Positions 5,748-52,105 of a DNA stretch of 64,000 nucleotides are shown one piece after another (position 1 is the first letter of the stretch; every line of letters begins with the position of its first letter). This stretch comes from Promethearchaeota archaeon (GTDB lineage Archaea; Asgardarchaeota; Lokiarchaeia; Sigyniarchaeales; SOKP01), in contig JBHLNF010000003.1 of NCBI GenBank assembly GCA_048937405.1, forward strand, positions 216,624-280,623, in the 5' to 3' direction. The notes beneath the pieces are model-generated. The model did no database searches, was not told the DNA's origin, and saw nothing but the letters and a program-made list of their open reading frames with translations. The position numbers were made by a program, and so were the translations under genes.

Positions 5748-5884
5748 TTTTTAATCTTAAAAAGTTCGTTTTATAATGATTAAAATGAATTAAAGGCATT
5801 TTTTTTTTCTATTTAAATTCAATGGTTTAGAAAATTTTAAAATATCAAACTAAGATAATTTAATAAAAGTAGCTTTGATACAAA

Positions 5885-6421
5885 ATGACGCTTTATGTAT
5901 TTAAAGTTTTAATAATAGGGCCAGGAGCAGTAGGGAAAACTTCACTTTTACACAGATTTGTGGAAAATAAGTTCTCTTTTCGGTATAAATTAACGATTGG
6001 AGCGGATTTTTTAGCTAAAGTTATTCAAGATCATCCAAAACCAGGATCAACAATAAAAATGCAAATTTGGGATATTGGAGGTCAAGAACGATATAAATTC
6101 CTAAGATCCAGCTTTTTTGATGGTGCCAATGGAGCCCTAATAGTATTCGATTTATCTCGATGGCATACATTTGAAGAAATTGATGAATGGTTATCAGATT
6201 TATATGAATATGCAGGTAAAGATGTTCCTTTTGCGTTAATTGGAAATAAGGCAGATCTAATTAACTCAAAAGACGAACTTTATGAACGAGAAAGCGCACA
6301 AGTATTTGCTAAGAAAGAAAAAACATTTTATGTTGAAACTTCTGCAAAAACAGGCGAAAAAGTAGAGGATGCTTTCTTGAATTTGGCAGAATTAATGATT
6401 AAAAAGATTAATCCTGATTAA
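5885..6421 (+). CDS. Rab/Ras-like small GTPase (paralog 3 of 3)
   Basis: GPGAVGKTSL, TIGADF, WDIGGQERY, GNKADL, ETSAKTG. 178 aa. Confidence 0.85.
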   Translation: MTLYVFKVLIIGPGAVGKTSLLHRFVENKFSFRYKLTIGADFLAKVIQDHPKPGSTIKMQIWDIGGQERYKFLRSSFFDGANGALIVFDLSRWHTFEEIDEWLSDLYEYAGKDVPFALIGNKADLINSKDELYERESAQVFAKKEKTFYVETSAKTGEKVEDAFLNLAELMIKKINPD

Positions 6422-6430
6422 ATTGTTTGT

Positions 6431-9400
6431 TTAATCTAATATTTTAAGCAATGCAAATGATATAATATTTGTATAAAATTTGGATTTATTCTTTTTAATC
6501 ATCTCATTTTTAAGATCTTCATATTCAAATGAAATATCATCCAATTTCCTTTTGGTTAAGATGATATCCTTGTTAATAAAATTAATTTCTTCTTCTAATT
6601 TTTTGATATCATTTAATCGCTCTTGCTTTTTTACTGCATCTGTTATTTTTTCTATATTATGGAGTTGCCGAGCAGTTGGTTTTTTATTATTATTTCTTTC
6701 CAATCTTTGATTTAATGATTCAAGTTTAAGATTTAAAGATCTTTTTTTATAAGAATAAATTTTTTCTTTTTTTTTCATTTCTTGAACAAAGATTTTATCG
6801 TTTAGATCTTTAATCTCTCTTTTCCAGTTTGATGTTTTAGATTTTATAATTTTTTTTGCTTTTTGTTGGAGTTCACTTATGACGTTATAATCTAATGATA
6901 TCATCTCTGGAGGATCATTGAATAATAAAATCTCATTGAAATTTTCGATATTTAGAATTTTATCTGATAAATTTACAATTTCATTACCAGTGTCACCGAT
7001 AACTATTGCAAAAATTTGATTTTCGATTATATAACCCTGAAATTTTACTGAAAAAATAAATAGATATAACTCATCGGTATTGATTGGTTTTAAATCCAAT
7101 AATTTTTCCAATTCTTTCTTTTTAAGATATAAAACACTAAAATTGCCATGAAATGATTTATTTTTAATAAAATCTAAAATGCTATTAATTAAAGGATGTC
7201 CTAAGGCAAAAAAATCAATTTCCTCTTTTTTCCTGGCAAGATCAAGATCAAATGTTCCAATATACTCATTTGAAACGTTAAAAATGAAATTTTTTAATAA
7301 ACTATCTTTAACTTCTATTCTTGATTTAAATTCATTATTTTTTTTCCCATCTTCAGAACCATCATATATATCTTCAAAAGTTCCATAAAGGTGATTATCA
7401 AGTTCGAAGAAATGCTTAATTAATAAATAGAGTTCATTATGGGTTAATTTTACTTCTACACAAGACGCTAATGAACTAATAAGACCTTCCATTTGAAATG
7501 ATTTTCTATCAATCATTAAATCATCTAATTGCATCTCAATTTCCTTTGCTCTCCTTATTTCTTCATCAAGAGTTCTATAAAAATCGTTTAATTTCTTTCT
7601 TTTTTTCCCATCTTCTTCAGCAAAAATTACACCTTTGAAATCTTTTTCGATACTCCCTATAATTGGTTCCAAAATTCCAATTGATTCTTCAAAAAGATTA
7701 ATACGTTTAATTATAGCATGTATTATGTCTGTTTCTACAGTTCCTTCCATGAATATATTATAAATATAGATTTCTTTTGATTCTTGACCAATTCTATCAA
7801 GTCTTCCTATTCTTTGTTCTAATTTCATTGGATTCCAGGGTAGATCATAATTTATCAACACACGACAGAATTGGAAATTTCGACCTTCACCACCGATTTC
7901 TGTAGAAATCAAAATTGAAAATTTTTGGCTTGATCTGAATCTTTCAACTGCTTCATCTTTTTGTAGCTTATCTAATCCTCCATAAAACAATTCAACTGTA
8001 TAGTCCTGATTAAGACTCTCAATTAATGATTTAATAAATTTTAATGTATCAACGAATTGGGTAAAGATAATAATCTTTTCTTTATGATTTTGTGAATATA
8101 TTTGTTCTATTATTTCAATTAATTTATCTGATTTTGAATCATAGGGTAAAGTTTTTAATTTATCATAAAATTCTTTTAAAATTTTCTCTTGATTGAAAAG
8201 CTCTACTGCTTCTTCTTTTTTTTTCTTGAATTCTTTATTATCAAAAAAATCAATTCGTTCTATATCAAGATATTGATCCTCTAATTCTGATTCGTAATAT
8301 TCAGGATCCTCCTGTTTAATTATAGTAGGATCAAGAAAAATATCTTTGTACCTATCAATTTGTTCAAGTCTTCTTTCCAAGCTTTTCAAAAAAGCGAACT
8401 TGGAACTTGTTAATAATTTCTGTAGAGTGGTTATAATAAATCCTATTCCCACATTATCCTTACTTATAGAAGAATTATAAATTTTAGCTAGATATAAACG
8501 GATTTCATTATAAATATCTAATTCTTGTTGATTGGGATTAACCATAATCGTATTTACTATTCTTTTATTTAATAACTCTTTAGAAAATACGTTTTTTTTC
8601 CGATTTCTAATTAAAAATTTAGATAATGTATGATCTTCTTCAATTTTTCTAATTAAGTTTAATTTAAAGGAATTATCTTGAATTTGGGTCAATACTTGGT
8701 TAATTTCCCTTTTTTTGTCAATATATCTGAGCTCTTTTAAAAGTTTTATTGTATTTTTTACTTCAAAATTATTCAATCTATCAAGATTATTCAAATTTGA
8801 AACTAATAAATTAATAAAGGGCATATTTTTTCTAAAGTGCTCAAAATCACTGAAATTTTCAAAAACATCAGGATGAATAAGTTCAATTAAAGAAAATAAT
8901 TCAAATGAGTGAAGTTGTAAAGGAGTAGCAGTCAATAACAGCATACCTTCTGAATTAATACTTAATTTTTTCGCTAATTCATAATTAAGAGTTTCTCGAT
9001 AATTTCCAGTCATTGCATTAATAAGATATCTTCTTAAATGATGAGCTTCGTCAAAAATTACAATGTCCCAATTGATATTGGATAATAGTTCGATATATTT
9101 TTTATTTCGCGCAAATTGAAGTGAACAAATAATTAAATTATCATAATAAAAAGGATTCTGGAGAATTTCAAGATGTTTATAACTTCCCCTTTTTTTTAGT
9201 TCTTTGACTTTCTTACCATCATATATAACAAAATTGATATTAAATTTATTTTGCATTTCAAATTGCCATTGTTTCACTAAAGAGGCAGGAACTATAATTA
9301 AGATTCGTTCTGCTAAATCCCTTGCCATCATCTCCTTAATATATATGCCAGCTTCAATTGTTTTTCCAAGTCCAACTTCATCAGCTAAAATAATTCTTGG

Positions 9401-20711: not shown

Positions 20712-20853
20712 ACTATATTTTTTTAATTCTTTATTTTATTGTTTTATTAAAATAATAAAGATCTTTTTTAGAGAATTTTCTTCTTTTTTGTAAAAAAATA
20801 GGTATAAATATTGATATTTTTTTATCGTATTTAAAAAAATTTATGTGAAATTT

Positions 20854-21738
20854 ATGTTATTACAAAATATAGATGCCGAAATGGTATTTAATCTTCTAGT
20901 AGCTCCAGTACTCGCATGTAGTTTGCTTTTTGTTGCTTATTTGATACTACGAAAAAAAGGAAGAGGGATAAATTCCGCAGAGTTTAAGGTTATCTTCATG
21001 TTTCTTACAGCAATAGCGGTAATGGTAACCATTACAATATTAGTAAATGCAGTGTTTGAATATGGTGGTCTCCCTTTAATTTTTGGTTTTATCATAGGAA
21101 TCGGTTATATGTTATTTGGTTTATTTTACATCGGTAGGACGATTTATAGAGCAAATAATAAGATAAATAATTTATTAGAGAATGTAATCAAATCAAGCTC
21201 AGAAGTAGCTATCAATGTGGCTAACATTGCAGCAGAATTAGCGGCAAATGCTAGTGAGATAAATGCGTCATCCGAAGAGATCGCATCCTCTACAGCTGAA
21301 ACAACAAGCCTTACAGAAGGAATTATGAGAGCTTCAAGTGAAATAAATAATGTTAATGAACTAATTACAAACATAGCTGATCAAACAAATTTATTGGCGT
21401 TAAATGCCAGTATTGAAGCAGGTAGAGCTGGTGAACATGGGAGAGGGTTTGCGGTCGTAGCAGATGAAGTTCGAAAACTTGCAGAAGAATCAAAAAGAGC
21501 GGTGAGTAATACTGGCAGTAAGATTACAGATATAATAAAAAATATACAGCTTTCTTTTAATAATATGGAAGGAATAAGTTCGGCATCGGAACAACAAAGT
21601 GCTTCTATGGAAGAGATCACAGCAACTGCAAACAAATTAGGTATATTGGCAGAAGATTTAAAGGATACTCTGAAAGTATCAGATGAACCGACTAAGCAAA
21701 AAAAGAAAATCACCTTAAAAGCAATAAGGAAACATTAA
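20854..21738 (+). CDS. Minimal methyl-accepting chemotaxis protein (MCP-signal domain), copy 1
   Basis: Canonical MCP hairpin tip [39 protein letters not shown]. Three N-terminal hydrophobic helices, no HAMP. The ORF track starts at GTG 20845; ATG 20854 (MLLQN) matches the TTTATGTTATTACAA start context of copy 2. Confidence 0.85.
21181..21738 (+). repeat. MCP 3' cassette, copy 1 (near-identical DNA repeat)
   Basis: Starts at AATGTAATCAAATCAAGCTCAGAAGTAG. Aligns to 22752-23309 and 26313-26795 with only scattered mismatches. Confidence 0.85.
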
Positions 21739-22412: not shown

Positions 22413-23309
22413 ATGTTATTACAAGAAATACTTCTTTCCCGAGACCAAGAAATAATACTGTCCGAAATAATACAAACCATAGTTATTTTATCGTTGATGA
22501 TAGTTGCTTCACTTCTAATACTAAAAAGAATAAGAAAAGGAATAAAATCTCCTGAATTTAAGGTTGCTTTTATGTTTCTTTCATCGATTATGGTAATGAT
22601 AGTGATGGTAAAACTTATAGACTTTTTTGAAAAGACTGCTATAGCTCAAGCTTTTGGTTATGTCTTTGGAATTAGTTATATGATAGGGTGCCTATACTTA
22701 ATTATTAAAAGTACTATTAAAGCAAATAGTAAAGTGGATGATTTATCAGATAATGTGATCAAATCAAGCTCAGAAGTAGCTATCAATGTGGCTAACATTG
22801 CAGCAGAATTAGCGGCAAATGCTAGTGAGGTAAATGCGGCATCCGAAGAGATCGCATCCTCTACAGCTGAAACAACAAGCCTTACAGAAGGAATTATGAG
22901 AGCTTCAAGTGAAATAAATAATGTTAATGAACTAATTACAAACATAGCTGATCAAACAAATTTATTGGCGTTAAATGCCAGTATTGAAGCAGGTAGAGCT
23001 GGTGAACATGGGAGAGGGTTTGCGGTCGTAGCAGATGAAGTTCGAAAACTTGCAGAAGAATCAAAAAGAGCGGTGAGTAATACGGGCAGTAAGATTACAG
23101 ATATAATAAAAAATATACAACTCTCTTTTAATAATATGGAAGGAATAAGTTCTGCTGCCGAACAGCAAAGTGCTTCTATGGAAGAGATTACAGCAACTGC
23201 AAACAAATTAGGTACACTGGCAGAAGATTTAAAGGATACTCTGAAAGTAGCAGATGAACCGACTAAGCAAAAAAAGAAAATCACCTTAAAAGCAATAAGG
23301 AAATATTAA
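22413..23309 (+). CDS. Minimal methyl-accepting chemotaxis protein, copy 2
   Basis: Same MCP tip motif. The C-terminal ~185 aa are nearly identical to copies 1 and 3; the N-terminal membrane part is divergent. Confidence 0.85.
22752..23309 (+). repeat. MCP 3' cassette, copy 2
   Basis: See copy 1. Shares diagnostic substitutions with copy 3 ([20 protein letters not shown]), where copy 1 has [20 protein letters not shown]. Confidence 0.85.
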
Positions 23310-25976: not shown

Positions 25977-26882
25977 ATGATTTTTATGTTTCTACAGGGA
26001 TTTAGTGTTGAAGAAATTTCTTATCTTTTGTTTCCTGCGATAATTTTTTTTGTTTTGACGATTGGTTTTTATTTCTTCATCAAAAGAAGGGGAAAGGGGA
26101 TAAAATCTAAAGAATTCAAAATTATCATCATGTTCTTTAGTTCGGTTATGATTATGGTCTATATGACAGTAATTGGATTATTATGGTTTGCTGATAATGT
26201 GACAGTTCAATTAGTTGTCCAAATTATTGGAATTGGTTCTATAACAGCAGTTGCATTTATTATTATTAGAATTATTTACAACACGGATACTAAATTGGAC
26301 AATTTAGTGAATAATGTAATCAAATCAAGCTCAGAAGTAGCCATCAATGTAGCAAATATTGCAGCAGAATTAGCAGCAAATGCTAGTGAGGTAAATGCGG
26401 CATCCGAAGAGATTGCATCCTCTACAGCTGAAACAACAAGCCTTACAGAAGGAATTATGAGAGCTTCAAGTGAAATAAATAATGTTAATGAACTAATTAC
26501 AAACATAGCTGATCAAACAAATTTATTGGCGTTAAATGCCAGTATTGAAGCAGGTAGAGCTGGTGAACATGGGAGAGGGTTTGCGGTCGTAGCAGATGAA
26601 GTTCGAAAACTTGCAGAAGAATCAAAAAGAGCGGTGAGTAATACGGGCAGTAAGATTACAGATATAATAAAAAATATACAACTCTCTTTTAATAATATGG
26701 AAGGAATTAGTTCTGCTGCCGAACAGCAAAGTGCTTCTATGGAAGAGATTACTGCAACTGCAAACAAATTAGGTACACTGGCAGAAGGTTTGAAGGATTC
26801 TTTGAAAGCAGCAGAAGAATCACCAAAAAAAAAAAAGGCGACAAATATATTATCAAAAATTAAATCATCTAAAGAATATTAA
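25977..26882 (+). CDS. Minimal methyl-accepting chemotaxis protein, copy 3
   Basis: Same MCP tip motif and near-identical cassette 26313-26795. Divergent N-terminal membrane region and a different Lys-rich tail. An alternative ATG at 25986 (MFLQG) parallels copies 1 and 2. Confidence 0.85.
26313..26795 (+). repeat. MCP 3' cassette, copy 3
   Basis: See copies 1 and 2. Similarity ends after ..AACAAATTAGGTACACTGGCAGAAG. Confidence 0.85.
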
Positions 26883-26964: not shown

Positions 26965-27384
26965 TCATTTTTTATTTAGTCTTATTATAAAAGTATAACC
27001 TTTATTTCTTTCCTCAGATTCTACAATTTTTTGCCTACCGTATAAATCTACAATTTCTTTTGAGAGATATAACCCTAATCCATATCTTTCAATATCTACC
27101 CCCAAATCCAATCTATATCTCTCAATTTTTCCAAACTTTTCAAATAATTTTTCTTTTTCTTTCTTAGTTATTCCCACTCCAGTATCTTTTACCCAGATAT
27201 CAATATTTTCAGGATTTTCGATAAGATTAACTAAAATTTCACCTCCTTTTGGAGTGTTCTTCATTGTATTTGAAATAATATTTGAAATCATCTGTCTGAA
27301 ACTAATTTTATCTATCTCTATATAGATTTCACTTGTCATATCAAATTTCAATTTTAACTTACAATTAGCTGCTAAGTAGTTCAT
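26965..27384 (-). CDS. Stand-alone histidine-kinase ATPase (HATPase_c) domain, no HisKA/H-box (truncated or split kinase)
   Basis: N box ISNIISNTMKNTP, G1 DTGVGI, G2 YGLGLYL. Only 139 aa. The upstream 180 nt is non-coding-looking. Confidence 0.55.
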   Translation of the reverse strand: MNYLAANCKLKLKFDMTSEIYIEIDKISFRQMISNIISNTMKNTPKGGEILVNLIENPENIDIWVKDTGVGITKKEKEKLFEKFGKIERYRLDLGVDIERYGLGLYLSKEIVDLYGRQKIVESEERNKGYTFIIRLNKK

Positions 27385-27562: not shown

Positions 27563-28228
27563 ATGACAAATTTTAAATCTGTTGTTAATAAACTTCAAAA
27601 ACACTACTCTGATGCTGAAGATGTAGTAATCGTTAGTAATAAAGGAAAAATCCTTTACTCTACGAATAAATGGGATGTTAAGCATGATATTTTAAGTGTT
27701 TTAAATAGCTGGAAAACTGGTAATGCGCAATTTGTTAACTTATGTGGTATAAAATATTCTATTCTTCAAATGGAACCCGAACGCTTTATTGGTACTAATC
27801 GCCATAAAAAAGGACATCTAATTGGAGCTACTACTCCAGATGGAAAAATTTATATGATAGCTCATATTAAACCTAAAGCAAAAGGATGGTTTCATATGGC
27901 ATATCCTGCTGTTGCCAGAGCTGCTGCAATGTTAAAAAAAGGTTCAGAATCAAAATTTATTGACACTGAAGTTGAAAAATCTAGTAGAAATAAAATTGAG
28001 CCAATTTATGAAAGTTCAACAAGTCAGATGGCAGTAAATCAAGTTTTTCCCGCGCGATCCATTTTAGATCCATATCTTAAAGCGGAAATTGAAGGTTTTT
28101 TACAATGGATTAACAATCCCCAAGGATTAGCAGGATATATTACCAATACATTGCTACAAAATGACCATTTTAGGATTTCTAAACTTGCTGAGATATATAA
28201 TAGGTTATATTCAATATGTTATGAATAA
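27563..28228 (+). CDS. Profilin-like protein with ~95-aa C-terminal extension
   Basis: aa 1-125: VVIVSNKGKILYSTNKWDV...CGIKYSILQMEPERFIGTNRHKKGHLIGATTPDGKIYMIAHI...AYPAVARAAAML. This parallels the profilin pattern G-x-KY-x-x-I/Q...GKKG...T...I..y...a...v..l. By-eye call only. Confidence 0.5.
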   Translation: MTNFKSVVNKLQKHYSDAEDVVIVSNKGKILYSTNKWDVKHDILSVLNSWKTGNAQFVNLCGIKYSILQMEPERFIGTNRHKKGHLIGATTPDGKIYMIAHIKPKAKGWFHMAYPAVARAAAMLKKGSESKFIDTEVEKSSRNKIEPIYESSTSQMAVNQVFPARSILDPYLKAEIEGFLQWINNPQGLAGYITNTLLQNDHFRISKLAEIYNRLYSICYE

Positions 28229-28551
28229 ATAAGAAGATCTTTGGAAATCTTTTCCAAAAACTAATAACTTTTTACATTTAAGAGAAGAAATTAGGATCTA
28301 TATATTTAACCTTTTTATATCAGTTATTAACTTGCAATGAATTGAAAAATGATAGATTGTATTTTTTTAAGATGAATAGTTGTTAGATGCCTTATCGCAT
28401 CTCAATTTTTTACCAAAGAATTTTCTTTATTTTAATTATCCTCATTTTTTGACAAAAATATAAGTAATTGATTATCATAACTATCTTTGTCAGCTTAATG
28501 ACAATATAATTCATTTATAAGGTAATTTTTTTATTGTTTGAGGTAATTCTA

Positions 28552-30717
28552 ATGAGTTATGTAATATTAGATGAAGAAAAATATGATATAAAAGGAGGAA
28601 AACTAGATCTAAATTCTAAAAACATTGAAAATATAACTGAAATTAGAGGTTTAAAGACTTTTTCTGATTTACAGGTATTATATCTTAATAAAAACAAAAT
28701 AAAAGAGATTAATGGCTTAAAGCATTTAAATAAGTTGAAAGTGTTGGCCCTAAGTGATAATTTGATTACTGAAATAAAAGGTTTAGAATCAAATATTGAT
28801 CTAGAATGGTTGAATTTAAGAAGTAATCAAATTACTGAGCTTAGAAACCTAGCTTCATTAAGTAACTTAAAAATTTTAAACTTACGTGATAATAGAATTA
28901 CAGAGATTAAAGGATTAGAATCTTTAACTAATCTACAAGAATTAATTTTAACAGATAATCAAATTGCTGAAATTAGAGAACTACGCTATTTGTCAGATTT
29001 ACAAGAGATAGATTTAAAAAACAATTTAATTACTGAAATTAAAGGGTTGGAAAATCTTACTAAATTACAGCAGATTGATATGACGAATAATCAAATTTTT
29101 GAAATAAAAGGATTGGAAAATCTTACAAACTTGCAAGAATTAGTTCTTGCAGATAATAAAATTTCAGAAATTAAAGGGTTAGAAAATCTTACACGATTAC
29201 GAGTGCTAAACCTCAGCAATAATCAAATTACAGATGTTAGAGGGTTAGAATCTTTAACTAATTTAAAATTTTTGAATCTTAAAGGTAATCCAATTTCATA
29301 TAGATTGCTTAGAGAATTAGATGGTTTTGATCAAAAAGGAAATGCTAAAAAACCTCAAAAATTTGTAGAATATTGCCAATATAGATTGGAAGAGGAGAGG
29401 AAAAAAGTAGAAAGGATTTGGAACAATACCATTCAATACATTAAAAAGTCGAGTTCAATATATAGTGAAATAACATTAGATAAAATTAGTTCAAAAACAG
29501 GAATTCAATCAAAAAATTTAGAAAGTCTTATTGAGAATATGATTTATAATAAAGAGATAGATGCCCAAATCAGAGGAAATTTGCTAATTTTTAAAAAACA
29601 AGTAATAAAACCAAAACTAGAGCCTAAATTAGAAGAAATGCCGAAGTTATCTCAATTTTTAGATGAATCTATAAAAAAAAATGTTAAAGTTTTAAGGGGA
29701 GGAGATTGGAAAATTGAAGCAAACCAGAGTGTTTTTAATTATAAAGTAAAAATAAAAAACTTATCTAAGTATATTATTTCAGACATTCAAGTAATCTTTG
29801 GAGATATACCTCCAGGATTAGAATTAAGAATGGATAAATTAATCGAATTTTCAAAATTAAATCCTAATAGTGAGGTTGCCCCAACATATAAATTATATGC
29901 TACTGACAATTGTGTGGGAAGTGAAATAAAAGGTATCGTAAATTACAATGATCATTTTGGCCAAATGCACACAGTTCAAATAGAGCCATTTGAAATTTGC
30001 TATGTATGTAATTTACTTGTACCAAGGAGAGTATCTAGAGAGGAGTTTGAGAATACAATACAAAACATGGAAGGAAGGATTATGCATATAGATAGTAATA
30101 TGGATCCATATAAAATTGAGGCTCTTATTAAAAGAAAAATGGAAGAATGTAATTTTGCTTTGCTTAAAGAAATCACAGAAGCCCAACAAAATGGTTTTAG
30201 GAAAATCGAAGGATTAGCTCAAGGATTATATGATAAGCAAGATGTAGCTATATCAATTGCGATGAAAAAACTCGAGGAAGGTTCAGACATAGAAATAAAG
30301 ACTTTAAGTGATAAGGTGGAAAAAACAACTGATCTTTTAAAAGATATTAGTATTAAAATTGAAGACATAAAAAGTGATACTCAAAAAGTTCAAGATATTA
30401 TTTATTATTTGGATGAATCTAAAATCAGAGAAACTTTAAGTATTGTAATTGAAAATCCTAAAGATTTAAATAGAGTTATCTATAAAGTTATTAAAAATCC
30501 AAATTGGAGTGATGAAGAAAAAGATAAATGGGCTAAAATTGTTATGGAAACTCTCAATTATTACAAAATGTTTAAAACTCCGTTGTGGTTAAAATTCCTC
30601 AAAGGAATTACTAAAATCACATTAGGCGAACCAGCATCAAGAGCCATTACGGCTGGAGTGGAAGAATTAGTAGATTGGTTAAATTTAAAAATTGCTAAAC
30701 GGCATATTAATAAATAA
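28552..30717 (+). CDS. LRR protein: ~10 leucine-rich repeats + winged-helix module + unknown ~350-aa C-terminal domain
   Basis: Ten 22-aa repeats of type L..L..L.L..N.ItEIkGLE.L. WH-like segment ITLDKISSKTGIQSKNLESLIENMIYNKEIDAQIRGNLLIFKK. The ORF track starts at TTG 28534; ATG 28552 (MSYVILDE) is likelier. Confidence 0.8.
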   Translation: MSYVILDEEKYDIKGGKLDLNSKNIENITEIRGLKTFSDLQVLYLNKNKIKEINGLKHLNKLKVLALSDNLITEIKGLESNIDLEWLNLRSNQITELRNLASLSNLKILNLRDNRITEIKGLESLTNLQELILTDNQIAEIRELRYLSDLQEIDLKNNLITEIKGLENLTKLQQIDMTNNQIFEIKGLENLTNLQELVLADNKISEIKGLENLTRLRVLNLSNNQITDVRGLESLTNLKFLNLKGNPISYRLLRELDGFDQKGNAKKPQKFVEYCQYRLEEERKKVERIWNNTIQYIKKSSSIYSEITLDKISSKTGIQSKNLESLIENMIYNKEIDAQIRGNLLIFKKQVIKPKLEPKLEEMPKLSQFLDESIKKNVKVLRGGDWKIEANQSVFNYKVKIKNLSKYIISDIQVIFGDIPPGLELRMDKLIEFSKLNPNSEVAPTYKLYATDNCVGSEIKGIVNYNDHFGQMHTVQIEPFEICYVCNLLVPRRVSREEFENTIQNMEGRIMHIDSNMDPYKIEALIKRKMEECNFALLKEITEAQQNGFRKIEGLAQGLYDKQDVAISIAMKKLEEGSDIEIKTLSDKVEKTTDLLKDISIKIEDIKSDTQKVQDIIYYLDESKIRETLSIVIENPKDLNRVIYKVIKNPNWSDEEKDKWAKIVMETLNYYKMFKTPLWLKFLKGITKITLGEPASRAITAGVEELVDWLNLKIAKRHINK
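28612..29296 (+). repeat. 66-bp periodic coding repeats (LRR array)
   Basis: In-frame 22-codon periodicity. Recurrent ATTACTGAAATTAAAGGGTTAGAAAATCTTAC-like units. Confidence 0.8.
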
Positions 30718-30833
30718 TTTCCTCAACTTTTTTCTTATGCAATATTTAAGAATTAAGGAAAAAAAATAAAAAATTTCTTAGAGAATTTTTCCAGATGATT
30801 ATTTAATTCTCTAATTTTAAATCTAAAAAATTA

Positions 30834-33800
30834 TTATCTTAAGATTTCTTCATAGAGATTCTGGATAAATCCTTCGAAATCATCTTTAGTAAATTTAACA
30901 TTTAACATTTGCCATAGTAATCGAGGTATATGGTCTTCATCTTCATAAACAGGGATAATTTTCATCAGCCCTTTTTTAACCATTTGATATGCTGATTGCC
31001 ATTCACCTTTTACTGCATCAGATTTTATGGAATTTTCTGAGCAAAATAATACGAAAACATTAGTTTTTTTAAGAGTCTCTTCCATAAATTCTACGATATT
31101 TTGCTTGCTATCTACTTCCCAGAATAAGACCTGATCTATTTCAGGATATAATTCTAGTCGTCTAACAATTCTAGAAACTTGAAAGTAATCTGTGTCTAAT
31201 GTTGAATAACTTATGAAAACATTATGTTTTGCCATAATTTCTTCTTTAGGTATAAGTACTGCCGCTTCTAATGCCAGAGCTTTAGAGCTTGAAAAGTATT
31301 CACCTTGGATTTCTTTATTTTTAATCATATCTTGAATTACATTCTCAATTATAGTTTCATCTATTATACCGCTCTTTTCACTTATATCTACGAGTTGTAA
31401 ACGAGTAAATTTCGCCCCTAAGGTTAAGATTGTCTGCTTAATTCGATTAATTGTTTCTACTTGTGACTTTTTACAAATTAATATTTTTTCTTCAGCTGCA
31501 TTCACTAAGTCTATTAATTCAAAAGTCTGAGCTTCGTTTTGAATTTCTGTTAAATTTTCTATAGCTTTATCTAATTCATTCGCCTTAATTAGAGAATCTA
31601 CAAAAGACATTCTTTCTTGAAGTTCTTCTTCAGTTTTAGTTTTCTTTTCTTTAACTTTTTGTTCATCTATTTTAATCTGATAATATGCGATTGTAGTTTT
31701 AATTTGAGTTTTATTTGATTTTATTTTTTCTTTATATTCAATGAGATTATAATTTTTAACAATTTCTTTAGCTTCTTTAATTTGTTTTTGAGCTTGGTTT
31801 AAGGTCTCTATGGCATCACTATATTCTTGTTTCTGAGCAAACTTATTAGCCGTATCAATGAGGGATGTAGCTTTATTATAATATTTATCAACTTTTGCCT
31901 CTTGTTTAATCATTTCTTTAGTTTTTTTTTCAATGGGTGCTTCTGCGGATGGTTTCACTTTAGGAGGCTTCCTTTTCTTTGAAACAACAAGAAGACTTAC
32001 TAATATTAATCCTAAAATACCCACACTAACTACAATGATAATTAATACGAGGTAATTTTTACCGTCTCCAGGAGTACCTTTACTCAAGGTAAGAGGATCT
32101 ACGGCTAATTCGAGTTCAAAATATTTATCTGAATATCCGTTAGCAGAAATGGTCATATTTAACAAAATGGGCTCTTCTCCTGGTTCTACGGTTATCGGCT
32201 CAAAAGTTGTAAAATAGGTTCCCCCTCCAAGGTTTTGAACATTACTAGACACATCACTGCCATTCCACCACATCTGAAATGTTGCATCAGAAATTCCATG
32301 ATTAGTCTTATTATAGACAGAATAAGTAAGATTGAATTCGTCTAAAGAGAAATTAGAATCTGTCACTTCTATAAATAGATTCCTTTCTGGAGCCCATTGA
32401 CATGTATAGAAGTATGGCCAATTCAAAACATTCGGCAGAAATCCAGTTAAGGCAACGTGATGTGCAAAAATCACTTTTAAACAATATGCCCATACATGTG
32501 CAGAATCATTAATTAAAAGTTCTTGAATTCTGTCGTACATTACTTCTCTTGCAGGCCCGTCAGGGGTAATGAGCGCTTGTTCCATTAATAGCTGTACGTT
32601 ATCATTGATATTCTCAGGGTCTCTACCAGCATAACCTGCCTCTAAATATCCATCATATTGAGCAATATTAGAAGCTTCTGATCTATTGGTAAACAATGGA
32701 TTGATAAAGTCGCTAGCATCATTATAGTCAGGTCCCCAGCCAACAAGTAATAGCTCTAGATGATTTCTTGTATACCCGTTCCACTCGAACATTTTAGAGG
32801 TAAGAGTAATTAAATCACTCCCTGCATCCGTTACTCGAATTCCGATTTTCTTTAGATCTCTGATTAACATTGTATATACATCTTCTCGAAGTTCGGAGCC
32901 GATGTTATAAGAATAGTTAAAGGTTCTAAATGGAGAAGTCTCTGTTGCTGCAACCCATTCAGCGTCGTCATCTAGATTAAAGCCTTCCCCATATCCCATT
33001 GATTGCATTATTATTCTTGCCTTTGTTAAGTTATATATGGGAACAGGGAATGTCCAGTTGGAGTACTTAAAACCCATTGGAATAGGAGATTTCATTCTGA
33101 TGGCATAACCTAATTTGGTAGTATTAATCAGATAATCATAATTAAATGCATAAGAAATTGCTTCTCTCCATGTCCTATTTATCAGCATATTGTTCATTAC
33201 TAAGTATTGAAAAGTTCCACCAGTATCTCCAGTATTTATCACTGCTATGTCAGGATCATCTGTAAACATATCCACAAATTCTGCTACCGGGTCTTTTAAA
33301 AAGTGGATGTCCCCTGTTAATAATGCCGCATTTCTAGCATCCGGATCTTCAATTTCTGAAAAAACTAAATTATCAATGCCCCCCCAATATCCTCTCCAAT
33401 AATTATCATAAGCATGCAAGGTTACTTCGACATCCTCCTCATATGAATCATACACAAAAGGACCAGTTCCCACAACATCCCCATCAAGTTCAACAATACC
33501 GCCTGTTTCATTATAGTATGTGTCGGTCAATATGGATGAGGCCGTATAGCATAACAAGTCCTCGAAAGGCGCATAGACACCATTTAACTCAAACCTTACA
33601 GTATCACTATCTACTTTAACAACATCTTTTATAATTTGAGTACCATTAGGGTATACATATAATGATCTTACCAGGGGAATGCCGCCTGTATTAAGACCTG
33701 TGAAATTATACAACCAAGCTTGTCTATCAAAACTAAATACAACATCATCTGCGTCAAATGTGGAACCATCGTGGAAAGTGACACCAGTTCGGAGATTAAC

Positions 33801-34133
33801 AGTATAATTTGTGTGACTTACGTCCCAGGTACCCATTTCTGCGGCGAGTAGGGGCATGATCGGCAGAGTGGGATCGCTTAAAGTATAAGTAAATAATGTT
33901 TCCACAACCTGAAAGAGTACATCCATTGATGACTCATCCCAGCAATTTTGGGGATCAATTGTATTGAGTAAGTTCGGTACACCATAAACAAAGGGAATGC
34001 TCGCAGAATCTGCACTAAATAATAAACTTGAATCAATAGCATTTTTGCGATAATCTCTAAAATTAATGAAACCATTTGATAAAGAAAGTAATATTGTTAT
34101 AATTAAAAAAATTGTTTTATACTTTTTTTTCAT
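30834..34133 (-). CDS. Receptor-like membrane protein: signal peptide + SBP family-5 (peptide/nickel-type) ectodomain + Ig-like region + TM + coiled coil + WH + TIR domain
   Basis: MKKKYKTIFLIITILLSLS signal (ATG at 34133; the ORF track extends to 34205). SBP_bac_5-like blocks (DPQNCWDESSMDVLFQVVETLFTY, VTFHDGSTFDADDVVFSF, GTGPFVYDSY). TM YLVLIIIVVSVGILGLILVSLLVV followed by KKRKPPK. K/E-rich coiled coil. WH-like LQLVDISEKSGIIDETIIENVIQDMIKNKEIQG. TIR-like HNVFISYSTLD...VFVLFCSENSIKSDAVKGEWQ. Confidence 0.75.
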   Translation of the reverse strand: MKKKYKTIFLIITILLSLSNGFINFRDYRKNAIDSSLLFSADSASIPFVYGVPNLLNTIDPQNCWDESSMDVLFQVVETLFTYTLSDPTLPIMPLLAAEMGTWDVSHTNYTVNLRTGVTFHDGSTFDADDVVFSFDRQAWLYNFTGLNTGGIPLVRSLYVYPNGTQIIKDVVKVDSDTVRFELNGVYAPFEDLLCYTASSILTDTYYNETGGIVELDGDVVGTGPFVYDSYEEDVEVTLHAYDNYWRGYWGGIDNLVFSEIEDPDARNAALLTGDIHFLKDPVAEFVDMFTDDPDIAVINTGDTGGTFQYLVMNNMLINRTWREAISYAFNYDYLINTTKLGYAIRMKSPIPMGFKYSNWTFPVPIYNLTKARIIMQSMGYGEGFNLDDDAEWVAATETSPFRTFNYSYNIGSELREDVYTMLIRDLKKIGIRVTDAGSDLITLTSKMFEWNGYTRNHLELLLVGWGPDYNDASDFINPLFTNRSEASNIAQYDGYLEAGYAGRDPENINDNVQLLMEQALITPDGPAREVMYDRIQELLINDSAHVWAYCLKVIFAHHVALTGFLPNVLNWPYFYTCQWAPERNLFIEVTDSNFSLDEFNLTYSVYNKTNHGISDATFQMWWNGSDVSSNVQNLGGGTYFTTFEPITVEPGEEPILLNMTISANGYSDKYFELELAVDPLTLSKGTPGDGKNYLVLIIIVVSVGILGLILVSLLVVSKKRKPPKVKPSAEAPIEKKTKEMIKQEAKVDKYYNKATSLIDTANKFAQKQEYSDAIETLNQAQKQIKEAKEIVKNYNLIEYKEKIKSNKTQIKTTIAYYQIKIDEQKVKEKKTKTEEELQERMSFVDSLIKANELDKAIENLTEIQNEAQTFELIDLVNAAEEKILICKKSQVETINRIKQTILTLGAKFTRLQLVDISEKSGIIDETIIENVIQDMIKNKEIQGEYFSSSKALALEAAVLIPKEEIMAKHNVFISYSTLDTDYFQVSRIVRRLELYPEIDQVLFWEVDSKQNIVEFMEETLKKTNVFVLFCSENSIKSDAVKGEWQSAYQMVKKGLMKIIPVYEDEDHIPRLLWQMLNVKFTKDDFEGFIQNLYEEILR

Positions 34134-34715
34134 AAATTTGACCCTATTTTTTGTTATGATTATTTTAGATAGAAATGTATAAAAACATTTTTGTCTAAAT
34201 TTCAAAACTAGAAAGTTGACCTGAAAAAACCAACGTTAAGAGATTGAATCGTTAAGAGATTAAATAAAGAGAGACATAACTATTAATTTGTAGTTATTAC
34301 TGTAGGAGTGCAAATAGTAATAACCAATATCTGTCATATTTTTAAAATATATGGAAATATTTTCGAATCATTTACTGGACATCATTATTTATACTTTGCT
34401 TGTATTTTATTTTAGATATTGCAATATCTTTAATGTTTTAATATAGTTCACTTAAACAACTTACTGTTTTTTAAATTACTAAATCTACAATCTTAATAAC
34501 ATATTAAGAGAAGATTTTTAAAGAAATCTAAAGCAATTTAAAATGATAATTCAATATTGGTGGTGAAAAATGATGATTCATTGTCATGAAATGAAAGATG
34601 GAGATATATATAAAAGTAAATAATCAAATATAGAATGTTATGAATGGTGAAACTTTTATTATCTTATTTGAATTATAAATAATTAATTTAATTTTCAAAA
34701 CGAAAAAATAAGAAA

Positions 34716-44041: not shown

Positions 44042-45082
44042 ATGAGTCAAAACCAGATATTGTGTGTTACTTACTTTGATCAAGTAATTGGCCCTAGTTT
44101 TCTTTATTCCAGTGAACCGTTAATTGAATCCATTGATATTCCCGATATTAATAGGATCCTTGAATTTAATGAAGAAGAAGGGACATTCATTTTTGCATAT
44201 AGAAAATATCAAACGGTAAATCATATTTTTTATATAGATTCTGATTTAGCACGAGGAGGAAGAGAATTAATGATGATTTCATATATGATCAAGACTGCTA
44301 TCTTTAAAGATGAAATTGTAGATGTTTTCAAGTATTTGGACTCGAAAGGACCAATTTTGGAGGATTTTGCCTTGGAGGTTAAAAATATAAAAGATCTAAC
44401 CTCCTTCTTACATGAGAAGAAGAGTGGGTTGACTGGTGATTTTTTGCTAGAACTCGCTAATAATAATTTAAAGAGCATATTTTTGGAAATTTTTAATAAA
44501 TACTTTGCAAAATTAGCTCCTAAATACCGATTAGAAACCCCAATTAAAGATAGACGTCTGATCAAGAAAATATTTATTGTTGGGGCTCCAAGAGTAGGAA
44601 AGACTACATTTTTGAAAAATATTGAATTAATTCAATTTTTGAATATAAAAAGAAATGATTTACCAAGTAGAATTTTTGAAGTAGTTGTTGAAAACATTGA
44701 TATCTTAGATTATGATCCTAATTCAAGTGAGTTTGAATGTAAGGAATTTGAAAATTTAGAAAACTGTGTAAATTTCTCACAAGGTTTTATTCTCCTTTTT
44801 GATTTATCTGATAAGCATTCAGCATTAAGAACAAAAGAAATTTTTCAAATTGTCGATAATACACGATTGGAAATGCAAAGACAATTAGCACCAATTTTAA
44901 TAATTGGAAATAAATTCCACAGTGAGAAAGAACTTGATCCAAAATTTATTAATGAAACCTTTGAAATTGAAAAATTAAAAGAACTTGGAGTTAAAATTAA
45001 TTATATTCCCATAAATATTTTGAAAGAAGATGAAAAAATGATGAATGCTTTACGATGGCTAATAATTAATATATTAGAGTAG
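44042..45082 (+). CDS. Longin/roadblock-like N-domain fused to a degenerate Ras-superfamily GTPase domain
   Basis: C-half: P-loop IVGAPRVGKT. No DxxGQ (has DILDYDP). NKxD replaced by GNKFH. No SAK. N-half has an ILCVTYFDQVIGPS.. mixed alpha/beta pattern. Confidence 0.5.
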   Translation: MSQNQILCVTYFDQVIGPSFLYSSEPLIESIDIPDINRILEFNEEEGTFIFAYRKYQTVNHIFYIDSDLARGGRELMMISYMIKTAIFKDEIVDVFKYLDSKGPILEDFALEVKNIKDLTSFLHEKKSGLTGDFLLELANNNLKSIFLEIFNKYFAKLAPKYRLETPIKDRRLIKKIFIVGAPRVGKTTFLKNIELIQFLNIKRNDLPSRIFEVVVENIDILDYDPNSSEFECKEFENLENCVNFSQGFILLFDLSDKHSALRTKEIFQIVDNTRLEMQRQLAPILIIGNKFHSEKELDPKFINETFEIEKLKELGVKINYIPINILKEDEKMMNALRWLIINILE

Positions 45083-45830: not shown

Positions 45831-46919
45831 ATGTCTGTCGAATATGGTGGGCAGTTTTTTAAAGTTATTAATAAAAAAAGTTCGCTAATTCTTGATTTAA
45901 GTAATCAAGGAATAAGAGATATATCTGAAATTAAGGGGCTTGATAATCTTGTAAATTTAAGATATCTTAATCTTAATAAAAATCAAATTACTGAAATTAA
46001 GGGTCTCGATAATCTAAGGATATTAGAGACTTTATCACTAGAAAACAATAATATTTCCGAGATTAAAGGTCTTGATAATTTAAATTTATTACAGCATCTG
46101 TTACTCAATGGAAATAATATTACTGAGATTAAAGGTCTTGGTAATCTTTCAAGTTTAAAGAGAATTGAACTACAAGATAATCCAGTTAGGGCTTCTGCAA
46201 AAGAGATGTTTGGAAGATATTGGTCAAATCCACAACCTATGGTAAAATATTGTCAACAAAAGGTTCCAGAGATTAGAGAACATGAAAAAGTTAAAAAATC
46301 AAAAGAAGAAACAATTCAATACCTCAAAAATTTACCATCTATATATGAGGAAATAACATTTGAAGAAATTAGCTTAAAAACAGGCTATAGTAAAAGAGAA
46401 CTTAAGGCTTTAACTGAAGATTTAATTTTAAAAGGAGATATACCAGGGTCAATTAGAGAAAATATTATAATATTTAAGAAAGAATTATTAACGGAAGCTC
46501 TGCAAGAAGAAACTATTCCCATAGAAAAACAAAGTAAAAAAATTTTTGTAAGTTATGCTACAAAAGACGCGGAATTATTCAAAATAAAGGAAATCGCAAA
46601 AGGTCTTAGAATTTATGATGAGATAGAGGAGGTTCTTTATTATGAAGCAGAATCATATGATAATTTTGTTAAATATATGAACGATAATCTCGGTAGATGT
46701 GATGTGGTACTCCTATTTTGCTCTCCAAATTCATTAGAATCTGGACCAGTTGAAAAAGAGTGGACTGCTGCGGATGCAATGAACAAACCTATTATTCCAG
46801 TATTTATAAGAGCGGATCATATTCCTCCACTTTTAAAATCAAGGTTAGGTGTTGAATTTGATACTTTTAATATGGAAAAAAATATTGAAGAGATTTATAG
46901 GATAATAATGAAAAGATGA
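45831..46919 (+). CDS. LRR (4 repeats) + winged-helix module + C-terminal TIR domain protein
   Basis: LRRs N.ItEIKGLDNL..L. WH-like ITFEEISLKTGYSKRELKALTEDLILKGDIPGSIRENIIIFKK. TIR-like KKIFVSYATKD...CDVVLLFCSPNSLESGPVEKEW...PIIPV. Confidence 0.75.
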   Translation: MSVEYGGQFFKVINKKSSLILDLSNQGIRDISEIKGLDNLVNLRYLNLNKNQITEIKGLDNLRILETLSLENNNISEIKGLDNLNLLQHLLLNGNNITEIKGLGNLSSLKRIELQDNPVRASAKEMFGRYWSNPQPMVKYCQQKVPEIREHEKVKKSKEETIQYLKNLPSIYEEITFEEISLKTGYSKRELKALTEDLILKGDIPGSIRENIIIFKKELLTEALQEETIPIEKQSKKIFVSYATKDAELFKIKEIAKGLRIYDEIEEVLYYEAESYDNFVKYMNDNLGRCDVVLLFCSPNSLESGPVEKEWTAADAMNKPIIPVFIRADHIPPLLKSRLGVEFDTFNMEKNIEEIYRIIMKR

Positions 46920-49912: not shown

Positions 49913-52105
49913 TTAAAGATTTAATTTTTGTTTCCATATTTTCATAGATAATTTTAATTCTTCTCTTTCTGGTCGACTTAAGATTTCAGGATTGCTTTTA
50001 AGTTCAGTGCTAGTAGAATGAATACTTTTCAATATACTACTATAACCTTCCAATTTAACAAATTCATTTTGAAATCTTTCTAATGCTAATGAGATTTCTG
50101 TACCGGTCATATTATCCATATTGTTAACAATTTCATCAAATTTATTTGATAAAATTACCGCCTTAGGTGCTTCAGTTGTGTCTTTTTCTTCAGGAGGAGT
50201 AACACCTTCTTTAGGGGGAATAGTAATTGCTGGTGTCGATACAAAAGGTTCTTCTTTTAATGGTTCTTCCAAACCAGGTTTTTTTATAGTTCGAATGATT
50301 TCTTTTCGAGCTCCTACCCAAGCATCTTCAAGTATGGGGACAAAAATTTTGATATGCTCCTCAATTATACTCCCAATTCCAGCAATTTCTGTCACATCTT
50401 CTCCTCGAAATTCTGTTTTTGAAAGCACACAAAGGATAACTTCTTCATAGTCTTTATTAATCCCCCATAAATTTTGTAAAGCTCGATTTCTATAATCAAC
50501 GTTATCCATCTTATCCATTTCTTGCATAATTTGATTATGTTCATAACTTGTCGTATCTATATATGTAGCAATTCTGAAGTTTATTCGGGATGGTCTGGCT
50601 TTAATTGCTTCAATATCAATATCAGAAAGATTTGGTGCTACTATTAAAACTCGCATCTTGGCTTTTAATATTTCCTCAGTTATGTGAGCTTTCGCACTTT
50701 CTGGAGAACGAATAAACCAGATATCTTTCATAGTGAAACCCCTCTTACCTTTAGCTTGATCCCAAAATTCTCTAGTGGTTATTTCGCTGACTTCTAACCT
50801 TCTCAAAATATCCGATAGTGTATTATCTAGTGTATCCACAATTCCTTTTGAGAAAATATCTCTAATATTACCAAATGATTGAAATATACCTCCAGAAAGG
50901 CCATCAATTCTTTCTTCAGCTAACTTTACTGCTTTATTAAAATTATCAGAAATTTCTCCAAAAACTTTCTCTTTATCTTCCCCTGATTTAGCAGTTATAC
51001 TTTCGACATTTTTAACCGCATCTGTTAATGAGTCTTTCATTTTTGCTATAATTTCTGTATTAATTCCTTCTGTTGCTTTTTTTAACTCATCAGCGAAAAC
51101 TGTTTGACTTACACTCAATTGAACGTTAAGATTATCGGTAATATCTTTTAAACGATTTTCAATAACTTTATCAATTACATCACCTACAGCTTGTTGAATT
51201 ACTCCTAAACGTAATTTCTGTAAATTATCCGTTACTGTTTTTTTAATATCCCCAAATTGATTTTTTAGATCAGCAACTTGATTTCTGATTATTTGAGATG
51301 TTTTCGTATTAAGATTTTCAAATTGTTTTGTTAAAGAGCTAATTTGATCATCTGGGAGAGTTTTAGAAAGATCTCCTAACTGAGAAATATCTTCAGTTAT
51401 ATTTCTTATTTGATCGATTGCTGAAATAGTATCATCAAATTCTTTTTGTTGAGCGTGGATTTGAGAGAGCATTTTTTCCTTTAAATCTGACATTATCTCA
51501 GTAGAATCTTTAACTTTTTCCATATCTTGTGCTTCTGTTTCAAGTTGAGCAAAGGATTTTTCTAACTGCTTAGGTATAGTGGATTTTATATCTGAGATAT
51601 ATGAATAAAAATTCTTTAATTGTGCTATTAGAGCCGCGTATGGAGGTAAAGCTTGATAGTGAGGAGTTGCACCAATAATTTCCTTGAATAACCCTTTTTC
51701 AAGAAATTTATCTGCAATTTTTTTACATTCTTCTTTAGGTTTGTTAATGAGAATCGCCATTTCTCCAATAGAAACTGCCTCTCGTCCAGTGGTTCGAAAA
51801 TATAGCTCAATTTCTTCATCTGAAAGATCTATTTCACTTAAAACTTGTCTGGTTAACTCTTTTGAATATTCAACTTGCTCTTCCTTTTCTATAACATCTT
51901 TTATTTCAAAATTCTCAACTTCTAAATATTGATTTATAAAGACTGTTAATTTATGAGGTGGCTCACCATGAACATCCTCTTTTTTAATTGGAAACTTTTT
52001 TATATCTCTGTATTGATCAACCGAAATTGGAAATTTGATTTCTTTTAAACAGATTTTACATGTAACTGCAACATCAACTACATCTTTATCTTTAAATAAG
52101 TACAT
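49913..52105 (-). CDS. TrmB-like wHTH protein with a ~300-aa inserted coiled coil and TrmB-C/PLD-like C-domain
   Basis: LSDEEIELYFRTTGREAVSIGEMAILINKPKEECKKIADKFLEKGLF (TrmB-type wHTH). Long heptad region. C-terminal MRVLIVAPNLSDIDIEAIK.. block. N-terminal CKIC..H motif. Confidence 0.45.
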   Translation of the reverse strand: MYLFKDKDVVDVAVTCKICLKEIKFPISVDQYRDIKKFPIKKEDVHGEPPHKLTVFINQYLEVENFEIKDVIEKEEQVEYSKELTRQVLSEIDLSDEEIELYFRTTGREAVSIGEMAILINKPKEECKKIADKFLEKGLFKEIIGATPHYQALPPYAALIAQLKNFYSYISDIKSTIPKQLEKSFAQLETEAQDMEKVKDSTEIMSDLKEKMLSQIHAQQKEFDDTISAIDQIRNITEDISQLGDLSKTLPDDQISSLTKQFENLNTKTSQIIRNQVADLKNQFGDIKKTVTDNLQKLRLGVIQQAVGDVIDKVIENRLKDITDNLNVQLSVSQTVFADELKKATEGINTEIIAKMKDSLTDAVKNVESITAKSGEDKEKVFGEISDNFNKAVKLAEERIDGLSGGIFQSFGNIRDIFSKGIVDTLDNTLSDILRRLEVSEITTREFWDQAKGKRGFTMKDIWFIRSPESAKAHITEEILKAKMRVLIVAPNLSDIDIEAIKARPSRINFRIATYIDTTSYEHNQIMQEMDKMDNVDYRNRALQNLWGINKDYEEVILCVLSKTEFRGEDVTEIAGIGSIIEEHIKIFVPILEDAWVGARKEIIRTIKKPGLEEPLKEEPFVSTPAITIPPKEGVTPPEEKDTTEAPKAVILSNKFDEIVNNMDNMTGTEISLALERFQNEFVKLEGYSSILKSIHSTSTELKSNPEILSRPEREELKLSMKIWKQKLNL

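Follow-up and report, generated by a model that had tools for sequence, protein, structure and literature searches.

A leucine-rich-repeat protein of a Promethearchaeota archaeon with a predicted adaptin/COPI appendage-like module, encoded beside a receptor-like TIR gene

The subject of this study is a gene in a window of 64,000 nucleotides from a Promethearchaeota archaeon (GTDB class Lokiarchaeia; assembly GCA_048937405.1, contig JBHLNF010000003.1, positions 216,624 to 280,623), whose 721-residue product combines a leucine-rich-repeat (LRR) solenoid, a winged helix (WH), a disordered hinge, a two-part module and a helical tail. Based on structure prediction, we assign residues 377-604 to the adaptin/COPI appendage ('ear') fold with a probability of about 0.9; strict homology to these ears is graded lower than the fold. 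We refer to the product as the LRR-WH-ear protein. An earlier note on this DNA, made without database searches, had described it as an LRR-WH scaffold in which a TIR domain is replaced by another C-terminal domain, possibly with an immune or signalling output. Its descriptive statements are confirmed by our analysis, and its interpretation is partly supported.

Results

Predicted fold of the C-terminal module

Two AlphaFold2 models were used, one of residues 375-727 and an independent one of the full-length protein. Both display the beta-rich segment and the subsequent helical tail that had been read from the sequence. The predicted sandwich consists of seven to eight strands, and the platform follows the order strand-helix-strand-helix, three strands, helix. 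In the full-length model, the LRR solenoid is succeeded by a long helix, the WH, the hinge, the module and the tail; the predicted TM-score (pTM) of only 0.45 for the whole chain suggests that these domains are flexibly linked beads.

In Foldseek comparisons with the PDB, the top matches are appendages, with E-values from 1.5e-10 to 1e-7 and alignments of about 240 columns each that extend over both subdomains. The best match of the 375-727 model is a chain of the COPI leaf (9qpq_H, E 1.5e-10); the appendages of beta2-adaptin (1e42_A, E 6.5e-9) and gamma-COP (1pzd and 1r4x; E 1e-8 for 1pzd) are likewise retrieved, as is that of alpha-adaptin (1w80/1b9k, TM-score on target 0.53-0.57). The full-length model repeats the appendage matches (1e42_A, TM-score 0.61; 2iv9_A, 0.63). 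The adaptin-appendage-like sandwich that the earlier note had named as one candidate fold is thus recovered by modelling and structural search. Next in the ranking are chains of BBS9, BBS7 and the Fanconi core complex; the BBS matches (6xt9_I, 6vbu_9, 6vbv_7) reach E-values of 2e-6 to 6e-6 over 339-376 columns, at a root-mean-square deviation (rmsd) of 17-19 Å. Folds that resemble the sandwich only, such as ApaG and TRAP-beta, score four to five orders of magnitude below the appendages, and a library of viral structures yielded only weak matches at the level of the sandwich.

No Pfam, NCBIfam, PADLOC or PDB-sequence match, to a housekeeping domain or otherwise, is found for residues 350-721. 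The statement that the C-terminal parts could not be assigned to a family stands at the sequence level, but no longer for the beta-rich part at the level of structure, where Foldseek assigns it as ear-like. Among 27 trimmed family members, sub-threshold Pfam matches point in the same direction: PTHB1_GAE, the GAE domain of BBS9, is found in 12 and Coatomer_b_Cpla (PF14806), the appendage platform of beta-COP, in six, with best E-values of about 1e-4, so that there is one sequence hint for each subdomain. The highest PF14806 score of a homologue is 22.8 bits, below the cut-off of 32.7.

Two cysteines of the module, one in SCVG (29911-29922) and the other in the YVCNLLxP junction (30004-30027), are 98-99% invariant in 185 family representatives. 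The second often lies within a CxxC motif, which reads CYVC in the window protein. The two residues could be paired structurally or bind a metal.

The LRR-WH scaffold and its TIR-bearing paralogue

The count of ten LRRs given previously is exact: ten canonical 22-residue repeats occupy residues 40-259, preceded by a degenerate first repeat. Pfam LRR_4 matches the protein with an E-value of 2.4e-48, and NCBIfam returns internalin LRR models alone, far below their cut-offs. Foldseek relates the LRR region of the full-length model to SDS22, InlA and the Roco LRR. These proteins have the same 22-residue repeats and come closest in structure to residues ~80-260, at 30-45% identity. Unlike them, the LRR-WH-ear protein is a cytosolic archaeal protein that has neither the inter-repeat region of internalins nor a Roc-COR module, nor any evidence of PP1 binding.

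The helix at residues 268-303, upstream of the WH, is modelled with a predicted local distance difference test (pLDDT) score of about 90, and the WH itself, of strand-helix-helix-wing topology, with a pLDDT above 90. Against the Pfam family PCI (PF01399), residues 286-340 score 31.9 bits at a curated cut-off of 22, the match being restricted to profile positions 22-73 of 84. Since the score exceeds the cut-off, the resemblance to PCI proteins, which had been offered as a weak impression by eye, was correctly seen. The WH subdomain is thus common to this protein and to the PCI-domain proteins of the proteasome lid, the COP9 signalosome and eIF3; unlike a full PCI domain, only the WH part is present, and the single long helix replaces the helical-repeat subdomain.

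A hidden Markov model (HMM) of the WH, built from family members, matches this WH with an E-value of 7e-24 and finds only two open reading frames (ORFs) in the window, namely the LRR-WH-ear protein and the product of the gene at 45831. The two proteins are 44% identical over 195 residues (BLASTP, E 1e-37), a span that covers the four final LRRs, the cap-linker stretch that holds a conserved YCQ, and the WH as far as IFKK. Beyond IFKK, the 45831 protein continues into a TIR_2 domain and the LRR-WH-ear protein into the beta-rich module. Hence, the previously proposed collinearity survives a proper alignment, the Cys-containing linker is common to both proteins, and the view of a shared LRR-WH scaffold with a swapped C-terminus is upheld. 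A homologue search with the LRR cap and the WH returned just four LRR fragments.

Distribution and domain architectures of the module family

A profile of the module was scored against 1.84 billion cluster representatives. The family comprises at least 673 clusters at E<=1e-3, 410 of them at 1e-10 and 194 at 1e-30; all named homologues and related loci are from Promethearchaeota, Thor-, Hel-, Hermod- or Hodarchaeota. An initial homologue search with the C-terminal region had retrieved 49 proteins, which share about 235 residues from VLRGGDWKIEGNQS and differ in their N-terminal parts (LRR plus PCI, TPR, WD40, Clp_N-like, or PCI only). TPR, LRR, PCI and beta-propeller domains all occur N-terminal to the module in relatives; WD40/beta-propeller versions, for example P0026 and P0044, account for 7 of 68 proteins in a Pfam survey. 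Almost always the module ends 0-110 residues from the C-terminus, and the regions before it range from 0 to ~2,600 residues. As for the C-terminal extensions, 83 of 185 examined members possess a Zn ribbon and 65 a helical tail of ~75 residues, and a long tail is rarer. In 36 of 161 representatives, a WH of the type found in the window precedes the module by 14-42 residues.

A transmembrane helix is predicted upstream of the module in 71 of the 164 representatives with enough N-terminal sequence; the module therefore often seems to lie on the cytoplasmic side, at the end of receptor-like proteins. The typical membrane version has an N-terminal signal or anchor and a single transmembrane helix 20-50 residues ahead of the module, and the ectodomains include SBP_bac_5, beta-helix/NosD, PKD/Ig and DUF2341. 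One such member, P0136, consists of SBP_bac_5, a transmembrane helix, the module and a Zn ribbon. Together with the 45831 paralogue, it indicates that TIR and the ear-like module replace one another on two scaffolds, LRR-WH and SBP plus transmembrane helix (SBP-TM). The metagenome-assembled genome (MAG) LW40_45 contains at least two paralogues; no second copy of the module is present in the 64-kb window.

Ras GTPase domains occur in two related settings. P0181 is composed of a Ras GTPase, TPR, the module and a long tail. Locus L010 encodes a Ras GTPase-TIR_2 fusion of 443 residues (241-1572), whose TIR is 62% identical to that of the 45831 protein, and, 2.2 kb downstream of it, a 1043-residue protein (3805-6936) ending in a PCI-WH and an ear-like module.

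The helical tail

The long tail of the window protein recurs in P0001, P0066, P0138 and P0181. It has no consistent Pfam or PDB-sequence match, and a homologue search with the tail alone retrieved only one fragment of 76 residues. The common tail of ~75 residues in family members P0003-P0087 shows the pattern ELIKEYTSQIE...SDWEKIK..W.DYK.GKI. For this shorter tail, Pfam gives sub-threshold matches to RST in 24 of 30 members (best E 1.1e-6) and to PAH_ZNF598 in 12 of 30, none of which is found in the tail of the window protein. RST and PAH are small helical domains of the alpha-alpha-hub type that bind disordered partners. In those parts of the 2020 preprint (10.1101/2020.10.19.343400) and of PMC10936438 considered here, an RST/PAH-like tail was not found mentioned. 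Two further candidates are not supported. For a Vps28-C-like tail, neither the window tail nor the 75-residue tail matches Vps28 in Pfam or among PDB sequences. For a membrane-targeting C-terminal amphipathic helix, a hydrophobic-moment scan gave no signal at the C-terminal end of the tail in the window protein or in P0008.

Orthologous loci and the convergent receptor gene

Full-length orthologues with 65-67% identity are found in three further MAGs (loci L007, L008 and L009). Each of the four orthologous loci has, directly downstream, a convergent gene for an SBP_bac_5...TIR_2 protein; in L008 it is cut by the contig end, with the TIR still visible. The co-occurrence of the two genes, raised as a question in the earlier note, is thereby answered positively. 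Its description of the neighbour as a convergent SBP-TM-TIR gene with stop codons 116 nucleotides apart also holds, the gap being 30718-30833 and the domains SBP_bac_5, a transmembrane helix and TIR_2 (domains from Pfam; transmembrane helix and topology read from the sequence). The outer flanks of the gene pair differ: a profilin-like ORF in the window, His_Phos_1 in L009, and PHO4 in L007 and L008. L007 furthermore encodes a second receptor-like TIR protein upstream.

The receptor TIR domains are 86-89% identical across the four genomes and the ectodomains 25-41%. This sequence comparison shows the pattern of a sensor that diversifies while its cytoplasmic end is under constraint. The receptor genes compared are those of the window (30834-34205, minus strand), L007 (7111-12528) and L009 (7062-10739), and the L007 ectodomain has gained a beta-helix/NosD region. 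Among the orthologues of the LRR-WH-ear protein, the sandwich and the tail are the best conserved parts and the hinge is the least conserved (Table 1); the domains flanking the hinge show 64-83% identity. Just ahead of its TIR, the receptor has a WH-like segment with weak similarity to the WH of the LRR-WH-ear protein (36% over 61 residues, pairwise E 0.002). An impression by eye of an MIT-like domain in the receptor coiled coil was dropped, as neither Pfam nor PDB sequences give an MIT match.

Coordinates and genomic setting

Table 1. Coordinates of the LRR-WH-ear gene, its predicted domains, its convergent neighbour and its TIR-bearing paralogue in the window.
Feature	Coordinates	Strand	Basis and remarks
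Whole gene	28552..30717	+	721 residues from ATG; LRR, PCI-type WH, appendage-like module, helical tail
LRR solenoid, residues 18-259	28603..29328	+	SDS22/internalin/Roco-like; Pfam LRR_4, repeat register, Foldseek
LRR C-cap and one long helix, residues 260-303	29329..29460	+	Conserved YCQ inside; AlphaFold2; aligns with the 45831 protein
PCI-type WH, residues 304-350	29461..29601	+	PF01399, AlphaFold2, WH HMM
Disordered hinge, residues 351-376	29602..29679	+	pLDDT <50; 12-23% identity among orthologues
Predicted GAE/Ig-like beta-sandwich, residues 377-482	29680..29997	+	pLDDT >90; Foldseek; 79-83% orthologue identity
Predicted alpha/beta platform, residues 483-604	29998..30363	+	Begins at the near-invariant YVCNLLxP junction; pLDDT ~90; Foldseek
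Helical tail of 117 residues, residues 605-721	30364..30714	+	Six predicted helices, pLDDT 52-76; 75-79% orthologue identity
Convergent neighbour	30834..34205	-	Signal/transmembrane helix, extracellular SBP_bac_5, single transmembrane helix, cytoplasmic coiled coil, WH-like segment, TIR_2
Paralogue that combines this LRR-WH scaffold with a TIR_2 C-terminus	45831..46919	+	Pfam, BLASTP

An in-frame TTG at 28534 is an alternative start that would add six residues (727 in total, with the same stop at 30717 on the plus strand). Gene calling on a Logan contig from an independent assembly yields the identical 721-residue product. The window has a G+C content of ~29%, and scans for tRNA genes and Rfam families gave no match in it. 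Its Ras-family and Arf-like GTPase genes, its weakly profilin-like ORF and the Asgard origin of all named homologues mark it as part of an Asgard archaeal chromosome.

Several small GTPases are encoded in the window. Three tandem genes of the Ras/Roc family lie at 4479-6421 (174-178 residues each; Pfam Ras E 1e-45 to 1e-48), and an Arf-like GTPase gene at 44042-45082 carries its Arf-family domain at residues 176-342, after an N-terminal region of ~170 residues without Pfam match. Between the latter gene and the LRR-WH-TIR gene, which follows ~750 bp downstream, lies an ORF of 116 residues. Immediately upstream of the LRR-WH-ear gene, an ORF of 221 residues (27563-28228) has a weak Profilin match (E 0.045, residues 17-105) and a C-terminal extension of ~110 residues; it is not next to the orthologues in L007-L009. 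Three proteins of ~300 residues with an MCP signalling domain (20845-21738, 22413-23309 and 25977-26882; Pfam MCPsignal E ~1e-30) are followed by an ORF of 139 residues on the minus strand (26965-27384) with HATPase_c as its sole domain, which may be a truncated histidine kinase. The window also contains a gingipain-type cysteine protease of 990 residues (365-3337; Peptidase_C25 plus propeptide) and two very long ORFs without a Pfam match at E<=1e-3 (53859-59321, plus strand, 1820 residues; 49913-52105, minus strand, 730 residues).

Discussion

Relation to known appendage proteins

The ears of adaptins (alpha and beta2 of AP-2) and of COPI (gamma- and beta-COP) have the same order as the module, an Ig-like sandwich and then an alpha/beta platform; they are likewise C-terminal behind a flexible hinge, and they are its best structural matches. 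Unlike these ears, the module is borne by an LRR-WH scaffold instead of the HEAT/ARM trunk of a heterotetrameric adaptor or of the coatomer F-subcomplex, and the LRR-WH-ear protein does not belong to a known heterotetramer. The module is furthermore followed by the 117-residue tail, it has no FxxxW motif, and the window protein yields no match at the sequence level.

Ears of this type have been noticed in archaea before, so that the C-terminal domain is, as a type, not 'uncharacterised', as the earlier note had it: appendage regions in Asgard multidomain proteins are described in both sources cited above. The bioRxiv preprint of Liu et al. 2020 (10.1101/2020.10.19.343400) reports adaptin/COPI C-terminal domains fused to Vps28/Vps23 and to UFL1-like regions in Asgard archaea. 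Makarova et al. [quoted passage not shown] The LRR-WH-ear protein resembles these proteins in its IG+TBP-like region, in its PCI/HTH and repeat domains and in the extreme domain shuffling of its relatives, and both sets include Zn-ribbon or helical C-terminal extensions as well as membrane-anchored versions. The likeness to arCOG15284 is drawn from the published description.

An LRR N-terminus is not mentioned in PMC10936438 or in the supplements searched. The LRR-WH-ear protein therefore looks like a new combination within an ear type already known from Asgard archaea. The long tail and the conserved pairing with a TIR receptor also appear to be undescribed, as neither is mentioned in the sections and supplements searched of the preprint and of PMC10936438. 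Moreover, we found no literature linking Asgard archaea with a BBSome GAE-platform module or with SBP-TM-TIR receptors.

Alternative explanations

One alternative is a cargo adaptor of the ESCRT-0 type. According to this model, the LRR would select cargo, the appendage and the tail would dock onto ESCRT-I or ESCRT-II, and the TIR neighbour would be incidental. Asgard appendage proteins with Vps28-C, longin, TPR and HTH/PCI have been proposed as ESCRT-0 analogues (PMC10936438), and the fusions of Vps28/Vps23 with ear domains and with UFL1-like regions, which contain a WH (10.1101/2020.10.19.343400), fit the model; the C-terminal region of some family members also looks Roadblock/longin-like, by an impression by eye only. 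Unlike the ESCRT-linked Asgard proteins, however, the LRR-WH-ear protein has no Vps28-C, steadiness box or longin detectable by Pfam and PDB-sequence searches. Both the window tail and the 75-residue tail are without a Vps28 match, and the latter favours RST/PAH, at sub-threshold scores. No ESCRT family, such as Vps4, ESCRT-III or Vps22/25/28, occurs in the 34 scanned ORFs of the window (about nine ORFs of at least 100 residues were left out of the scan) or in five homologue contexts. We regard an ESCRT-0-like role as rather unlikely; as an alternative, it would be compatible with an adaptor function.

A subunit of a coat- or BBSome-like oligomer is quite improbable. Here, the GAE-like sandwich and the tail would hetero-oligomerise with paralogues instead of binding short motifs. 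BBS2, BBS7 and BBS9 have the architecture propeller, hx, GAE, pf, CC, and their GAE domains heterodimerise in the BBSome (PMC7018513); the LRR-WH-ear protein may have a comparable layout, with an N-terminal repeat domain, a GAE-like sandwich, a platform and a helical C-terminus. Furthermore, the structural matches to BBS9 and BBS7 extend over the helical tail, PTHB1_GAE is the most frequent sub-threshold Pfam match in the family, the beta-propeller and TPR N-termini of relatives recall BBS2/7/9 and BBS4/8, respectively, and LW40_45 has more than one paralogue. BBSome subunits are adaptors for membrane proteins and are recruited by Arf-like GTPases. Unlike in BBS2/7/9, an LRR takes the place of the beta-propeller, which does occur among paralogues, and the superposition is loose, since the long BBS alignments combine the high rmsd with TM-scores of 0.17-0.32. 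The single module copy in the window, and paralogues without conserved clustering, do not favour this explanation either.

The evidence for the immune or signalling reading is confined to the TIR-bearing paralogue and the TIR-bearing neighbour. As an immune sensor, the LRR would be combined with a novel toxic or signalling effector module in place of TIR, and it is true that in the 45831 protein this LRR-WH scaffold ends in TIR_2, that the convergent neighbour has a TIR, and that TIR and the module alternate as cytoplasmic ends on SBP-TM proteins, as P0136 suggests. An effector enzyme, in the sense of the 'output' supposed previously, is contradicted by several results. PADLOC detects none of its families in the LRR-WH-ear protein or in either TIR protein, and by Pfam the former is devoid of a TIR, nuclease or NADase effector domain. 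Residues 350-721 contain no NTPase or enzymatic motif and no enzymatic Pfam domain, and the predicted fold is a known protein-interaction module. The module is also attached to hundreds of unrelated N-termini in its many clusters, housekeeping-like repeat proteins included, and the surrounding genes are metabolic and signalling genes that do not make up a defence island. An immune effector is therefore very unlikely.

That the appendage likeness is convergent or generic, i.e. an ordinary Ig/ApaG/TRAP-beta-like sandwich joined to an unrelated alpha/beta fold without analogy to ears, is extremely doubtful: ApaG, TRAP-beta and complement MG domains do match the sandwich (E 1e-5 to 1e-4), identity to the appendages is only 9-13% and no profile matches at curated thresholds, but the top matches all belong to the appendage class and align both subdomains in the same order, the sandwich-only matches fall far behind, the two subdomains have separate sub-threshold Pfam matches to GAE and to the coatomer platform, and a euryarchaeal family was linked to AP-2 beta by the HHpred result cited above.

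Proposed function

The explanation that we somewhat favour is that the LRR-WH-ear protein is a soluble, non-enzymatic adaptor or scaffold with flexibly linked parts. The LRR solenoid would bind a protein ligand, and the WH may pair with other WH-bearing proteins. Eukaryotic ears bind accessory proteins at short linear motifs of these partners (DPF/W, FxDxF, WxxF); by analogy with them, or with the GAE domains in BBSome subunits, the ear-like module and the tail could be hubs that recruit partners. The best candidate partner is the SBP-TM-TIR receptor, because its gene is the convergent neighbour in all four orthologous loci. Its cytoplasmic part would be the likely client, and the LRR-WH-ear protein might couple the receptor to downstream sorting or signalling machinery. 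We treat this partnership as a tentative lead.

A number of observations weigh against the assignment and the proposed partnership. Even at E<=1, the 721-residue protein has no Pfam match to adaptin, COPI or BBS families, and the module profile finds nothing meaningful among PDB sequences. The TM-scores of the appendage matches are moderate (0.5-0.6 on target), with an rmsd of 5-6 Å. The FxxxW motif, a feature of the adaptin/COPI platform according to PMC2262067, is absent, and there is no Trp in residues 483-604 or in the family consensus; the conserved aromatic residues of the platform are an NF pair and the Tyr of AxGxYD. The tail is modelled with low confidence and has no assignable fold. 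As regards the gene pair, distant family members show no TIR neighbour within 6-10 kb and no conserved context, the receptor gene is convergent and hence not co-transcribed with the LRR-WH-ear gene, and the four genomes with the pair may be fairly close relatives.

A bolder model, which is unlikely on present evidence, extends the adaptor function to a receptor-adaptor system of Lokiarchaeial-type Asgard archaea. In this system, soluble LRR-WH proteins and single-pass SBP-TM receptors would be two scaffolds exchanging TIR and ear as interchangeable cytoplasmic ends, and the gene pair would function as one unit. With the ear protein docked on the TIR receptor, perhaps through contact of the two WH segments, the sensing of surface ligands would be coupled to membrane sorting or to GTPase/ESCRT machinery. 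If true, such a system would be a prokaryotic forerunner of the way in which receptors and adaptors are coupled in eukaryotic endocytosis and in TLR-type signalling.

How the coat-adaptor parts of eukaryotes arose is an open question, and such parts are sought in the Asgard archaea. For this search, the LRR-WH-ear protein provides a clean, high-confidence example of a predicted ear-like GAE-plus-platform module. If its pairing with the receptor is not physical, it represents one further domain combination in a known, highly shuffled Asgard family. If the pairing is physical, the two proteins would be a testable pair for what archaeal 'ears' bind, with a bearing on receptor-adaptor coupling before the eukaryotes.

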